This document shows positions 1,630 through 16,243 of a stretch of DNA of 49,667 bases, piece after piece; the first letter of the stretch is position 1, and each line of letters opens with the position of its first letter. Under the pieces are notes generated by a model that searched no databases, was not told the origin of the DNA, and saw only the letters and a program-made list of their open reading frames with translations. Position numbers and translations under genes: made by a program. The stretch comes from an uncultured bacterium (GTDB lineage Bacteria > Patescibacteriota > Gracilibacteria > Absconditabacterales > Absconditicoccaceae), in assembly GCA_963541585.1 (NCBI GenBank), contig CAUTUR010000001.1, positions 1 to 49,667 of the forward strand. Direction: 5' to 3'.

Positions 1630-2127
1630 CTATAAAAATAAACTCATTAATCCTCTCAAGATAGCATAAGAAGCGATAATCACGATGATTCAGATAATGG
1701 CGTTTTTCATTGCTGCTTTTGCATCACTTGGACTTCCGTATCAAAAAATTGTTGTGGCATACTGATATCCAGCATAAAGCATCATGATCCCTCAAATAAG
1801 GAGCCCTAGCTGTGATAAAAATTTCATAATATAGACCACATACTGAATCAAAGTATTTCGTCCCATAATTCAGGTTTGCATGGCTTTTGCAATATCTCAT
1901 TTTTTTTCATAGTCTTTTGCTATGGTAGTATACCTTTCAATTGCTGTTCCTGAAATAGAGGGGTTTCCGACAGTTCTTACATCATTTGCAGCAGCAGTTC
2001 TTCCTTCTTCAGAGGAAATTTCTGGGATAATGTGGAGATTATTTGGTGTAGCAGAAGCCTGAGATCCTCAAAATAAAAAACTCAACATTACAAGAGAAAG
2101 GACCACAATAATAATTCTGATTTTCAT
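1630..2127 (-). CDS. Small membrane protein, TrbC/VirB2-like (type IV secretion pilin-like), 165 aa
   Basis: ATG at 2125-2127, TAG at 1630-1632, and every codon in this gene checked for TAA/TAG; 6 in-frame TGA. Signal peptide MKIRIIIVVLSLVMLSFLFGGSQASA. Two C-terminal hydrophobic helices flank a short loop (LLIGGIMMLYAGYQYATTIFGYGSPSDAKAAMKNAIIGIIVIIASYAIL), the layout of T4SS pilins. The family call is by resemblance only. Confidence 0.5.
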
Positions 2128-2148
2128 GATTTTTTTTAGGAAATAAAT

Positions 2149-3081
2149 TTAATTACATTGAGAGATAAGTTTTGGAATCATCCTCACAACTCCATGAAGA
2201 TTACTGATTGCACTTGTTAGATTTTCTAAAAGTTTTGTTGCTCTCGTATTGATAAGATAGTGATCTGCATATTGTTTCATTTCTTGCGACAAGAGTAAAT
2301 CAGATTTATGAATAATGAGATTTGATAGGAGATATACTTCCTTATCTATAGTTTGCTGAGTCATATTATCACAGGCTCTTTGTGCAAGAAGCATCTCTTC
2401 ACTCTGAAAATCAATAGGGAGGAGCGTCATAAGATAAATAGCACTTTGACAAAGGTTGCTATATCTGGTATTTAAGTTTCGCTCTCTATATTTTGAAAAA
2501 GGAAACCTAGTTTTTTCAATGTCTTCTATCGATTGTCTATATTCTTGGGGAGAAACTCAATTGTATGACGGAAGATGAAGAGAGGCTTGTCTCTCTCGAT
2601 TATCATGATATGTCCTTGATAGAGCAGGTGGTAAAGCTCACGCTCTTTGATGTCCTATTTGATTTGTTGTTTCCCTTCGCTCTTTAGCTTTTCCATCAAC
2701 AGGAATGTCATCATAGTTTCCATCTATATTTAATCTCCTCATCATCACATCAACTAAGTGATCAAAAAGAAAGGCTGATTCAGGGAAGTTGGTCCTATTT
2801 TTAATCAGGATACGGTCTTCTTCACAGGATTTTTTCATTATAGGATTATCATTGAGGAGATTTGAACTGCAACAGTGGCTTTTTAGGTTAATTAAAGCCC
2901 TATGAAGTCCTTCTTTTGTTAGGGGTTGTAAAGCGGGATTCCCCTTTGTTGTTGTATCAAAAAGCGTATTTTCAATCGCTTTAATTGAAGTTTCCGTAAA
3001 AAGCGCACAGTCATGGGCGGATACAAAGCTAAAGGTAATGCTTCATCAAACAAGAAATAAGAAGACAGATTTTTTTAGCAT
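2149..3081 (-). CDS. Secreted hypothetical protein, 310 aa, Cys-containing
   Basis: ATG at 3079-3081 and TAA at 2149-2151. Track ORFs 2149-2430 and 2638-2838 share this frame, and the gaps hold only TGA. N-terminus MLKKSVFLFLVGGSITFSFVSA looks like a signal peptide. Lies 67 nt downstream of the giant ORF. Confidence 0.7.
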
Positions 3082-12100: not shown

Positions 12101-15100
12101 TGTAGAAGTAATTTTTACCGTTAAATTTCCATAATCTTTTAAGGAAAGAAAATTGAAAGCACCAGTTTTATTTAAAACACTAATTTTTTTATTCTGAGTC
12201 GTAATTTGTGTCTGATTTAGAATATGTTGTACAAAAGAATTTTCAGAGGAGCTCTGAGTAGGAATTAAATTATCAAATCCTATCGATGATTTTAACGATT
12301 TTTTATAGCTATCTCGAGAGTCTGAAAGAGGGGTAATAACATCGTTTTCTACGCTTTCTTTTATCGGAACAGCTCAGAGTGAACCCTCAAAAGAAAGTGA
12401 AATTTCGAATGGTTTTTTCTTGATTGCGTTTAATCGACATTTGAGACCTTCCCACCACTCAAATTTTCAGCTTTTAAAGTCATAAAGAAGGAGTCCTTCA
12501 TTAATATCAAATCAGCATTCCTTTTGAATATCATGAGCTTCTTTTGCATCTCATGGGGATTCTTCTCTGTTCGGTTCTTGAGGAATTTGAATCTTTTTTT
12601 CTCATTCCCTAAACTGTTCATCCTGATCAGGAATAACCGTATCATCGCTATCAGAGTTAATATACCCTACTTCATATCCCTTGGTAGTATAGCTTGGAAT
12701 AATAAGTTTTGAGTGGGTATTCTTCCTTTGATAATAACTATCTTTTTCTTGAGTAAGGTAATTATGGATAATATAATCAATTTTTTCATTAATATCAAAA
12801 TTCTTTTTCGTATTTTGAATATCTTCCTGAATATTATCACTATAAGTTTTGATCTGATTTGAAATATTTTGATAATAGAGAAGCTCTGCTAGGCTGTTAA
12901 GCATTTTCTCGCCACCTATTGCATCGAGCATTTCTTCATAGGTAAAAGGCTCATAAGAACGAACACTAGTTTCAAGACTAGGAGTTGCGAGTTTATCAAC
13001 AGAAAAAAGTTTAAGATAATGTTCATCAAGTTTTTTTGCTTTTTGTTTTTCCTGAGATAAAATTCTATTATATTCAGTAACTTTATTATTCAGATAGTCA
13101 ACTAAAGCTTGACGGATACTATCAGGAGTTTTCAAAACAAAAGACTGATCATAGATTTCTGTTTTAAATAAGTTAGGATAGATGAGTTTTACTTCATTTT
13201 CTCCCACTCCTTGGAAAGAAAGATATCTTGGTGAGTCAATAGGTCTTTCTGGAGTTAAGATATTCATTCATGGAATTTCAACTTGTGGATTGTGAGGATC
13301 TGAAAAAAAATGTTCTGTAAAGAGTGATTTAGCTTCTGATACATCATCGATAATGGTTTGAAGTGGATTTTTAGTATTTCAAGATTCAGAACTACTTTCT
13401 CAAGCTTCTTCACTTCATAAACAATGAGGATCCTTTTCGTCTCAAAAACTAATTTGATTTTCATCTTTTCACAGCATTGTTCCAAGAATACTATGATTAG
13501 CATTACAAGGTTCTGATTGATTAATCTTTGAAAGAACTCAACTAAGTTGATTTAAAGGAATATAAAGCGACTCCCAAGCAAGTCTGATTACTTTGTCCTG
13601 ATGTTCAATTCATTGATGTGTAGCAACTCAAAAATCAATCGTTTTTTTCATTGCTTCTACTGCTTGGACTGAATCTAGGAAGCTTGTAAAAATCTGATCT
13701 CAAACTTGCTCTTGCTTCGTGATGAAAGCCTGAACTGTAGAAATTTTATTTATAATTTCATGATACCGGGTTTGCAAAAGTCAGATTTTTTCTTTTTGAT
13801 TAATTTGTCTCAAGATAATTCATTCAATAGCACTTTTGGTATCATTTGCATAATTTTTTGTGATAAGGCTATTATAATGGGATCGAATCTCTGCTTGTCA
13901 GCTGGAAATCTGTGCTAGTGATTGTAGTAAAGATGGAGAAATTAAATTTTTAATGGTCTGTGGATTTGTGTCATTACTTGCTGCTTGTAGCTGATTTTTT
14001 AGAGAAGAAAGTTGGCGATTTATGATGCTAAGTTGTTGAAGTAAGGGTTCAGAGTAGTTATCTTGTGGTAAGCTTAGTCCTTCTTTTATACTTGTATAGT
14101 AGCCCCAATATTCGGTATCTTCGGAATATTTCAAACCTGAATATCCATTAATCTGCGTTGCAGTAGTCGCATCGTGTTTTACTTTTGAAGGAATGATTTT
14201 GTATTTGTAGAGGATTCAAAGATCTTGTCTATGTTTTTTTTCTTTTTTAAGAGAAAATACTGAGCTCGATTCAGGTTTAAATACTTTATCTTTTAGGGGA
14301 ACATTAAAATACCACACTTGATCCAGCTTTAGACTATGATCAGTAGCATCCTTTAATTCTCTCTCTTTTCGTGCAGTTTTCGTCGGAGAAGAATAGGAAG
14401 AAGCTCCCTTAAATGACAAGGCATCAATTTCTGGATTTTTTAGGGGAACAGCACCTGCAATATCATAAATTTCTTTCCAAGCAGATTTTGGATCATAAAT
14501 CCCACTAAAGTTGTAAATCTGATTTTGCATTTTTTCTGTATCAAGATTGAGCGGAGTTGCTCATCACCATACTCTGTTACCAAATTGTTGAAAATTTTCA
14601 CAATCAGCCCGATCTTTCTGTTTTTTTGATTCTGGTTTACATTTTCCAATCGGTTCCCATTTTGATTTTACACAAGGAAGCCATTTCCATTTGAGGCCAA
14701 AGAGTCTTTTACTACAATGTCGGTTTATTTTTGCATGCCTCTTTTCTTTTTGATAGAGTTCATATTCGGATTCAGTATTAAAAATATTATATCCTCTATT
14801 AGCTTCTACCTGAGTTGAAAACAGATCATAAGAAGATCCCAGTCCCTTACGATTAAGTTCTGTCTTGTCTTCTTTTGTTTTTGCTGGATTGATGGTATCT
14901 CAAATGATCTGAGAATAGCTAACGAATCAACTTAAATTTCTATACGTTCATCTAAATAAAGAGAAATCCTGAGCATTTCTGATCGTTTGTGCATTTCTTC
15001 AAAAATAGAAAAATTGGTAAATATCGTTGAATTCTGGTATATAATATTTTTTGAAAAGAATTCTCCTTTTTTTATCTTTAGATTGTTGATAATAAATAGG

Positions 15101-16243
15101 AATCGTTGTTTTCATCGCATAATTTTCCTTTTCTACTTTTTGATCAACAAAAGCTTCAAGTCTATCATTGATACTTTTTAATATTCAATTGGTTTTATTA
15201 TCACCAAGGAGAACTTGGTCGTTGATATGAAGCTTTTTATAATGACTATCACTTTGTTCTCGTCTATCACTGGCTTTTATATTTTCAGAAATGGTATTGA
15301 GAAGTGGATTGCTCAAAACCTCATAATATTTTCTAAAAAAAGTCTGAATCTTTTTTTCTAATAACTTTGTGGGAGTATAGTCAGACTTTCCTTCTTGTAT
15401 ATCTTGTTTTGATAGCTCAAGACTAGTATTTTTAATTCAAAAATCCTGTAATTCTTTACTAAGATCGCTTATTAATTCTTGATTATTTCAATCTTGATCT
15501 TTCTGTAAAATACGAGCAAAAAAATTCGTATAGCGGTGATACATTGAATCTTCCGCAAAAATTAATGAATTCTGATAGAAGCTATAAGCATCTTCCAAAA
15601 AGTTCTTTTTGAGTGCAATGAAATCATCATACCAAATCTTCTTATCCACGAAATCAGTCGGATTGTTGTCATATTGCTTCAGTTTATTAAAAAACTTATG
15701 ATAATCCTCTGTAGTATTAAAATTGATGATTCCATGCCGGAGTTCGGCTTGTCCATTATCATTATTTTTTACAAAATACTTCGTCTCCTCATCCCAAAGA
15801 TATTTTTGCTCCAAAAAATCTACATAAGGATAAATAGAAGGGAAAATATAATCCTCATATCTCACGACAGGAAGTGGTATTTCTCAAACCAGCACGACTC
15901 CGATCATGCGAGAGCTTTCATCTTTCAATCCATCAAAATACATATTTTCCAAGAGCTTAGTTAGCTTAGGAGCCGAATATTCTTTGGTATTGATTTTCAG
16001 AATTAAGGCTTTACTCAGTGGATAGTTTTTTTGAAGGTATTGGGTGGTATATCGTTTGAGATCCTTTTCTATACTTGGATAAATTTGATCGTCTACTAAA
16101 ACTGTTACAAGTTGGGTGCTTGTATTTTTATTGTTAGAATCTGCAGAAACCGTATTTCGATTGATATATCCAAAATATGAGAGCAGGTTTGAGGCTAGAT
16201 ATCAAAATAGAACGAATAATGCTAATAATCTTTTAGCTTTCAT
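3149..16243 (-). CDS. Giant surface or membrane-anchored protein, 4364 aa, with FG-GAP/VCBS-type repeats; otherwise no family recognised
   Basis: Nine track ORFs (3446-3985, 4637-4909, 4949-5149, 5882-6436, 8066-8299, 12602-13267, 13898-14134, 14216-14530, 15488-15865) share one frame. Every inter-ORF gap, checked codon by codon, contains TGA but no TAA/TAG. ATG at 16241-16243, TAA at 3149-3151. I counted 50 in-frame TGA between 8281 and 12600 alone. N-terminus MKAKRLLALFVLFGYLASNLLSYFGY is hydrophobic. Confidence 0.85.

Follow-up and report, generated by a model that had tools for sequence, protein, structure and literature searches.

The window considered here is a stretch of 49,667 nucleotides, read on the forward strand of contig CAUTUR010000001.1 (assembly GCA_963541585.1), from an uncultured bacterium of the Absconditicoccaceae. 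The Absconditabacteria/SR1 and related lineages live as obligate epibionts or predators, in some cases in the human mouth. On its minus strand the window carries, in this order, a giant gene specifying 4,364 residues, a gene for a secreted protein of 310 residues and a gene for a protein of 165 residues related to the VirB2/TrbC pilins. These genes make up a conserved three-gene envelope module of SR1/Absconditabacterales-type bacteria. The features of this trio are the following:

3149..16243, minus strand: giant gene, 4,364 aa by translation table 25, with 111 TGA read as glycine codons; predicted Sec-exported multi-domain envelope protein
16142..16243, minus strand: N-terminal signal sequence of the giant protein (aa 1-34), identified by hydropathy, with MKAKR, then hydrophobic residues at aa 6-27, and a putative VSA↓D cleavage site
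14384..16156, minus strand: conserved N-domain (aa 30-620), present in all family members, without database match
9344..10246, minus strand: FG-GAP/VCBS integrin-like beta-propeller block (aa 2000-2300), from Pfam and collinearity within the family
5534..8026, minus strand: most conserved core (aa 2740-3570), without PDB match by sequence or fold
5924..6265, minus strand: proline-rich segment (aa ~3327-3440); the list of invariant columns includes about a dozen of its prolines
3118..3145, minus strand: promoter-like site TTGAAA-16-TG-TATACT, in the 67-nucleotide gap before the next gene
2149..3081, minus strand: secreted protein of 310 aa, with a VSA↓HDC signal peptide, seven conserved cysteines, and a predicted all-alpha fold ending in a very long C-terminal helix
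1630..2127, minus strand: VirB2/TrbC-like protein of 165 aa (PF18895 family), from Pfam, NCBIfam and hydropathy

The giant frame extends from an ATG at 16243 to a TAA at 3149 over 13,095 nucleotides, or 4,365 codons, with zero internal TAA or TAG, and an in-frame TAA is found eight codons 5' of the ATG. An earlier reading of the same DNA, made from the letters only (the sequence-only reading), had seen there one frame free of TAA and TAG with well over 50 TGA; the exact count is 111, to be compared with 33 TGG. At the G+C content of the window (33%), base composition predicts about 0.058 TAA or TAG per codon on the minus strand, and the corresponding arithmetic gives a run of 4,364 codons devoid of both a chance probability of about 1e-112. 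The genetic code of the window is that of table 25, with UGA specifying glycine, because TGA sits on the Walker-A and S-adenosylmethionine (SAM)-motif glycines of housekeeping genes. Such TGA-encoded residues, bracketed here, are found in the window in ClpB (LV[G]EPGV[G]KT), in HolB ([G]PE[G]IGKT) and in a VirD4-like ATPase (GKT[G]TGKS), while in the SAM motif of KsgA (EI[G]P[G]K[G]) three glycines out of three are TGA. When orthologues of the giant gene are compared, TGA is exchanged for GGN codons and TGG for arginine codons, so that translation by table 25, proposed at the outset, is substantiated both by conserved motifs and by codon swaps. The composition of the giant protein becomes 6.3% glycine and 0.8% tryptophan with TGA as glycine, and 3.3% tryptophan with TGA as tryptophan. 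FtsH is uninformative as a test of the code, having only two TGA codons, both within a variable domain.

The gene stays 'invisible' to annotation because many public copies are mistranslated by table 4 (3-8% tryptophan, placed at UGA) and because, in many assemblies, gene calling by table 11 splits it into fragments of 87-676 residues. Most database copies of the homologues collected here (P0001-P0084) are products of table 4 or table 11, with few NCBI entries using table 25, which makes the family easily overlooked in surveys.

The giant gene is real, single and under purifying selection: it displays one frame, a uniformly low ratio of nonsynonymous to synonymous substitution rates (dN/dS) and full-length homologues. 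A protein search retrieved 84 clusters at 90% identity, nearly all 3,900-5,900 residues long, with E-values from 0 to 3e-35; the few that have a name are termed 'VCBS/FG-GAP repeat-containing' or hypothetical, and come from metagenome-assembled genomes of SR1, Absconditabacteria and Gracilibacteria. A search of 1.84 billion cluster representatives (50% identity) with a profile made from the core recovered 818 clusters at E<=1e-3 and 389 at E<=1e-30; among the best 150 of the 818, each is a giant protein or a fragment of one, and the core keeps its relative position. Compared with the nearest species representative (locus L008, 91% amino acid identity, 3,303 codons), the giant gene has a dN/dS of 0.12, which remains between 0.085 and 0.146 in each of seven 500-codon windows, and the values are 0.19 for the 310-residue gene and 0.09 for the 165-residue gene. 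The single giant open reading frame (ORF) of the sequence-only reading thus finds its confirmation in the selection acting on it and in the length of its relatives.

The association of the three genes is also conserved. Look-ups of six giant homologues gave the order giant, ~300 residues, ~160 residues in four (L001, L002, L004, L006); L003, a second contig of the same protein as L002, is not counted as a separate locus. A scan started from the 310-residue side, with one genome per GTDB species, yielded 19 loci: in 18 of them the giant gene is the immediate upstream neighbour, and in 16 the pilin-like gene is the immediate downstream one. Their labels read SR1, Absconditabacterales/Absconditabacteria, 'Peribacteria' or uncultured, and among the named organisms SR1 human oral taxon HOT-345 is the nearest. 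The intergenic gaps of the window, 67 then 21 nucleotides, are those first described, on the same strand, and they span 24-171 nucleotides in other loci. Synteny of the trio in related genomes, put forward as a check of the initial proposal, is therefore what both surveys returned. The promoter-like site at 3118..3145 is only a possibility, the count of such sites in the region not exceeding that of shuffled sequences. On the other side of the giant gene, a hairpin of 9-10 base pairs at 16311-16334, terminator-like on both strands, separates its start from a RhuM gene; from its sequence, it would insulate the giant transcription unit and place the promoter within 16244-16310.

Distant relatives present other surroundings. 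In BD1-5 Gracilibacteria and in a non-recoded lineage, giant homologues (L005, L027 and L028) are without the two partners next door. L027 (the locus of P0070) holds a non-recoded relative read by table 11, of 5,367 residues with an SLH domain, that adjoins type IV pilus genes (T2SSE, T2SSF, N_methyl pilin) and not VirB2-like genes. At L026, in a BD1-5 Gracilibacteria genome, two (1002-1773) and three (26458-27688) tandem PF18895 genes are found within 8 kb of the giant homologue P0077, together with a Peptidase_M23 gene, while a counterpart of the 310-residue gene is absent. Following a different track, 10-11 environmental Absconditabacterales loci have, directly after the trio and convergent with it, a gene for a secreted Cys-rich protein of ~690 residues (L004, 27007-29148; L006, 24730-27144; L013, 11398-13476; also L011, L017-L021 and L024), often followed by ORFs of ~370, ~470 and ~500 residues; the window has no homologue of it.

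What kind of protein does the giant gene specify? Its hydrophobic N-terminus, remarked upon from the start, is confirmed by hydropathy, and a small-x-A motif is kept after the hydrophobic stretch in all giant homologues, which suggests cleavage by signal peptidase. The N-domain that follows displays the pattern xLIGVVLVGxIPLPVV ... YPYVDF ... AE(I/L)WHG, with invariant residues that include His170 (H146 of alignment A1, where residue 1 corresponds to aa 25). A weak match to Peptidase_C25 (PF01364, E=5.5e-4) appears in one of 24 N-domains, that of a distant member; the alignment has the invariant histidine and no invariant cysteine, so that the His/Cys dyad of that family is missing. The N-domain may be a degenerate gingipain-like fold devoid of the catalytic cysteine, to be taken as a lead only. 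FG-GAP/VCBS repeats had been presented as the one familiar module, and this is correct: FG-GAP_3, matched at aa 2114-2174 (nucleotides 9722-9904; E=5e-11, 43.4 bits for a cut-off of 26.9), is the sole Pfam domain of the protein, spanning ~1.5% of its length. The core comprises, in order, a Cys/Gly/Pro-rich block with the invariant stretch CxGLPVPFNQAFLAPG ... PTLT ... GGNC, a long helical bundle, a CxxC cluster, the proline-rich segment, which is a candidate wall-spanning spacer, and an end block of the form KIYCIIKxGIGLVGE...IEQxTQRT.

Three blocks remain collinear throughout the family, even at 22-25% identity: the N-domain (~30-620), the propeller (~2000-2300) and the core (~2500-3570). Distant collinear homologues insert Invasin_D3 and Big_1 between N-domain and propeller, and on the C-terminal side of the core they have SLH and TSP3 repeats. 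SLH was found in this way in P0070, P0071, P0073 and P0074; by Pfam, the giant protein of the window and all homologues linked to the trio lack it. NCBIfam gave no match for seven tiles of the giant protein, and profile searches of PDB sequences with the N-domain and the core gave nothing significant. An AlphaFold2 (AF2) model of the core, made through orthologue P0011 (51% identical), reached a predicted local distance difference test score (pLDDT) of 54 and was unusable; for this low-confidence model Foldseek retrieved generic helical hairpins.

In the hydropathy profile of the giant protein only two features stand out, the signal sequence at the N-terminus and a weak stretch at aa 3280-3302. 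SLH domains bind wall polymers outside the membrane. We considered the weak stretch as a transmembrane helix, in a VirB10/TonB-like arrangement of transmembrane segment, proline-rich region and C-domain, and rejected it: because SLH, which is extracellular, lies C-terminal to the stretch in distant homologues, both sides of it must be outside the membrane. The mature protein has no transmembrane helix, LPXTG motif, lipobox or SLH domain; after aa 3302 hydropathy reveals no hydrophobic anchor, and the C-terminus (...ATITFKVKPL) is not of the sortase class. To judge by its sequence, the giant product is an extracytoplasmic, cell-surface protein, on account of its N-terminal signal, its FG-GAP_3 domain, and the SLH, invasin/Big_1 and TSP3 modules of its distant homologues.

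The 310-residue protein had been announced as secreted, and a signal peptide is indeed present. Its family, aligned over 31 sequences, keeps seven cysteines, one of them two residues from the C-terminus. The protein has no match in Pfam or NCBIfam, nor, with the family profile, among PDB sequences. The AF2 model of orthologue P0092 (54% identical; pLDDT 83, predicted TM-score 0.75) is all-alpha and ends with a helix of 83 residues. Against the PDB, Foldseek found for it a best E of 0.86, with TM below 0.25, and no pilus protein nor any fold of the VirB5/TraC type. A minor pilin resembling VirB5/TraC had been a candidate for this protein; we rejected it, neither fold nor family hidden Markov model (HMM) matching.

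The 165-residue protein has the layout initially ascribed to it, a signal peptide followed by a two-helix hairpin, as judged by hydropathy, which peaks at aa 3-21, 93-115 and 143-161: the signal peptide (site ASA↓T) precedes a hydrophilic region of ~65 residues that opens with NNLHIIP, for (N/D)xx(H/E)IIP in the family, then transmembrane helices at aa 93-118 and 143-161. Its assignment to a pilin family by HMM, also part of the original proposal, stands for the family and less well for the window copy. The latter scores 22.5 bits (E=1.2e-4) with PF18895 'T4SS_pilin', below the Pfam cut-off of 26.6 bits, and it is matched by NCBIfam NF045849 'pilin-like conjugal transfer protein' at E=6e-4. 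By contrast, 14 of 15 orthologues match PF18895 at E<=0.01 (best 6e-7) and three of the 15 match TrbC/VirB2 (PF04956). Furthermore, an HMM built from the pilins of the trio recovers the typical PF18895 array pilins of a Gracilibacteria locus. Profile searches of PDB sequences gave no significant match to solved pilins, and tblastn against plasmids no match. Sequence profiles place the protein, at family level and with the window copy under the cut-off, within PF18895, the VirB2-like T4SS_pilin family found in the candidate phyla radiation (CPR).

Pilins of this type evoke a type IV secretion system (T4SS), and the window has one further gene of that kind, recognized from the start as VirD4-like and confirmed by TrwB_AAD_bind, TraG-D_C and DUF87 matches:

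35368..38268, plus strand: VirD4-like ATPase, of the type IV coupling protein (T4CP) kind, with a C-terminal S1 domain

S1 is an RNA-binding domain, and the gene lies in a locally G+C-richer stretch (~0.40) with no adjoining T4SS gene. No other locus examined has it in synteny with the trio, and on this comparison of gene order it is probably not part of the module. The absence from the window of VirB4, VirB6 and VirB8-11, noted earlier, holds, together with that of VirB3 and TrsD, for the family searches made over 20 neighbouring ORFs; three ORFs (45323-49665) and small ORFs left out of that scan are all too short for VirB4. No VirB4 or other T4SS gene was found within 8-10 kb on either side in the nine loci with precomputed Pfam matches (L001-L006, L026-L028). 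In eight further species none of 10 among 30 large ORFs downstream of the trio is VirB4-like, as judged by eye, these 10 including LigA, ClpB, MutS, a beta-propeller and Cys-rich secreted proteins. Within the distances covered, the co-occurrence with VirB4 that had been put forward as a check failed to appear. In a survey of CPR T4SS, 148 of 5,713 T4CP homologues were near virB4, and T4CP was dispensable in Southlakia; VirB2-like pilin genes were widespread, and away from virB4 in ~40% of the assemblies carrying them; in Gracilibacteria T4SS genes were dispersed and VirB6 undetected, and the survey found no PrgB-like adhesin (PMC12102498). The role of CPR T4SS and of their VirB2-like pilins has been described as unknown (PMC11665869). 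A connection of the trio with a T4SS is possible.

Our proposal is that the giant protein makes contact with the host after export by Sec, and that its two co-encoded partners keep it at the envelope; we would put the chances of such a function at about even. The protein would be exported by Sec, its signal peptide probably cleaved, and would then be located wholly outside the membrane. Its N-terminal two-thirds, with the N-domain, Ig-like modules and the integrin-like FG-GAP propeller, would extend away from the cell and attach to the host or prey; the conserved core, proline-rich segment included, would be lodged together with the C-terminal third at or in the cell wall. Retention and assembly are assigned to the partners because the mature giant protein has no transmembrane helix, LPXTG, lipobox or SLH of its own: the disulfide-rich helical protein of 310 residues would act as an adaptor, and the VirB2-like protein with its two transmembrane segments as a membrane-embedded socket or short stalk, a paralogue of CPR 'T4SS pilins' recruited to this end. 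In its boldest form, which we regard as doubtful, the trio would be a new host-contact apparatus, combining a socket or stalk of the VirB2 pilin type, a disulfide-rich adaptor with a new fold and a 480-kDa adhesin, and would be the missing contact or adhesin arm of the Patescibacterial T4SS. If this were true, T4SS pilins could be exapted to mount giant surface proteins.

To be sure, several observations weigh against this proposal. The poor model of the core leaves that region without a reliable fold, and the pilin-like copy of the window scores under the Pfam gathering threshold. The promoter-like site in the gap of 67 nucleotides leaves co-transcription not established. The BD1-5 homologues of L005 and L028, with neither SLH nor adjacent partners, indicate that retention is possible otherwise; for the same reason the idea of complementary anchoring (SLH where the partners are absent, partners where SLH is absent) holds only in part. 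Uniform purifying selection, with a conserved N-domain and core, would be unusual for an adhesin determining host specificity and fits a structural or mechanical role equally well. Finally, we infer signal-peptide cleavage, the physical interaction of the three proteins, anchoring by the partners and host binding, the last of these from domain types alone.

The sequence-only reading had made the giant protein the adhesin, needle tip or substrate of a reduced T4SS- or pilus-like machine. In the corresponding model the 165-residue protein is a true pilin working with a VirB4 encoded elsewhere, the 310-residue protein a VirB5-like minor pilin or adaptor, and the giant protein the tip adhesin or a substrate. 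Homology of the pilin-like protein to PF18895 and TrbC pilins speaks in favour of such a machine, as do the T4CP-like gene of the window, the five PF18895 genes within 8 kb of the Gracilibacteria homologue at L026, and what is known of CPR systems, where pilin genes are often away from virB4, Gracilibacteria T4SS genes are dispersed with VirB6 undetected, and no PrgB-like adhesin has been found (PMC12102498). Yet no VirB4, VirB3, TrsD or VirB6 turned up among the window ORFs scanned or around the nine loci, nor any VirB4-like protein among the downstream ORFs read in the eight further species; the T4CP gene is not syntenic elsewhere; the model of the 310-residue protein is unlike VirB5/TraC or any PDB fold; and the pilins of the trio have ~65 additional N-terminal residues and match neither solved nor plasmid pilins. 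Moreover, all three proteins carry Sec signals, so that no T4SS is needed for their export, and because of its own signal the 480-kDa giant protein is more simply exported by Sec. What stood of this claim on the role of the giant protein is its surface location; no VirB4 turned up near the trio in the loci examined, nothing speaks for a needle-tip or substrate role, and we consider the model unlikely.

In another balance of the same evidence, the giant protein would be a structural component of the envelope, such as an S-layer-like scaffold, a wall organizer or the matrix of a cell-cell stalk, with the two small proteins as assembly factors. Strong and uniform purifying selection, length and collinearity highly conserved across hundreds of clusters, the SLH domains of distant homologues, and a Pro/Cys-rich core whose invariant residues look machine-like rather than repeat-like would all suit it. 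An FG-GAP propeller and invasin/Big_1 modules, however, are typical of ligand binding and adhesion, S-layer proteins tend to be much smaller and very abundant, and no lattice-forming domain is in evidence, which makes this explanation rather improbable. As for the possibility that the three genes are unrelated neighbours, or that the giant frame is decaying or a non-coding artefact of recoding, it could draw on the possible internal promoter and on the fragmentation of the gene by table-11 annotation in many assemblies. It is effectively refuted by the gene order and short gaps kept in 16-18 of 19 species, by dN/dS values of 0.09-0.19 for all three genes and by full-length orthologues in hundreds of lineages.

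The rest of the window offers several observations of its own. Directly upstream of the giant gene, a defence island occupies 16512-23151 on the minus strand, with RhuM, a type III restriction enzyme (res, 854 residues), an N6/N4 methylase (634 residues), an ORF of 138 residues and a protein resembling antitoxins, with helix-turn-helix and SocA/Panacea parts. The G+C content falls to 27-28% at 18-22 kb, and this low value suggests that the island was horizontally acquired. Between 28795 and 35173, on the minus strand, the window has a second large surface protein, of 1,555 residues, in which six DUF285 'Mycoplasma' repeats are combined with Cadherin, He_PIG and Big_13 domains. After it comes a secreted protein of 538 residues with a beta-propeller (PF09826), and the two form another candidate host-interaction pair. 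Another protein, of 487 residues (38393-39856, minus strand) and without Pfam match, appears to be made of about seven repeats of ~45-70 residues ending with G(A/I/N)DVSxYEKxF-like motifs. At 24265-25578, on the plus strand, the window specifies a bacterial protein that belongs to the TMEM43 family (PF07787, E=1e-78), a family otherwise best known from proteins of the eukaryotic nuclear envelope.

How does the trio compare with known systems? Its pilin-like protein shares with the CPR PF18895 pilins of the MPF_FATA-related T4SS (Quinonero-Coronel et al. 2025, PMC12102498) a signal peptide, a two-helix transmembrane hairpin and a location away from virB4, common among CPR pilin genes, and its orthologues match PF18895 and, for some, TrbC. 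It differs from them in being single-copy, tied to the giant and Cys-rich genes instead of being part of an array or placed beside virB4, and in ~65 extra N-terminal residues that open with the conserved (N/D)xx(H/E)IIP; in addition, the copy in the window scores below the cut-off of the family. PrgB, of the pCF10 type of monoderm conjugation, is likewise a large Sec-exported surface protein encoded with T4SS-related genes, and the giant protein could provide the contact between cells for which monoderm systems need no long pilus. It has, however, no sequence or domain relationship to PrgB, no LPXTG and no adjacent T4SS, and it is 3-4 times larger. With the adhesins of type I secretion systems (T1SS) SiiE, LapA and MpIBP the giant protein has in common its size class, an extracellular multi-domain build, Ig-like modules, repeats of the calcium-binding type and a presumed role in adhesion. 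Yet it has an N-terminal Sec signal where they have a C-terminal T1SS signal, and it is not built from tens of identical tandem domains, more than half of it being unique conserved sequence. Pfam searches found no RTX/HemolysinCabind repeat, and no ATP-binding cassette (ABC) or membrane fusion protein (MFP) gene is adjacent, the neighbours being uvrB, RhuM and a restriction-modification system. Because the defining features of these classes were looked for and are lacking, the giant protein stands outside the RTX/T1SS, LPXTG and SLH adhesins.

Parallels also come from other bacteria. The surface of Vampirococcus, one of the Absconditabacteria, is fibrous, and its giant membrane proteins, which reach 4,163 residues, have been proposed to serve host recognition and attachment; the largest, VAMP_16_20 of Vampirococcus lugosii, is annotated as hypothetical (PMC8080830). 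VCBS proteins have been detected in Gracilibacteria metaproteomes (PMC11452946). Judged by lineage, size and integrin/VCBS annotation, VAMP_16_20 and the 'VCBS repeat' proteins of Gracilibacteria probably belong to the same family as the giant protein; these reports list proteins only, with neither synteny of a pilin gene nor a domain map. The giant genes of Omnitrophota (West-Roberts et al. 2023, bioRxiv 10.1101/2023.11.21.568195) offer a conceptual likeness, that of an ultra-small putative predator with a giant gene beside pilus or secretion genes. Their proteins are unrelated, from another phylum, 10 times larger and endowed with hydrolase domains, and their neighbours are type II secretion system (T2SS)/type IV-pilus genes, not VirB2-like pilins. 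In the searchable literature there is no account of the conserved trio, nor of a giant protein paired with a VirB2-like gene. The combination had been held to be uncharacterized, and in this respect it is; databases already have many members of the protein family itself, entered as 'VCBS/FG-GAP repeat protein' or hypothetical, and what is new is the trio and its pilin-like partner. In this trio, strongly constrained across a whole lineage, the genome's largest protein is linked to a membrane protein that resembles pilins. It is a good and concrete candidate for the machinery with which these parasitic bacteria attach to their hosts, and it puts one class of CPR 'T4SS pilins' into a functional context for the first time.

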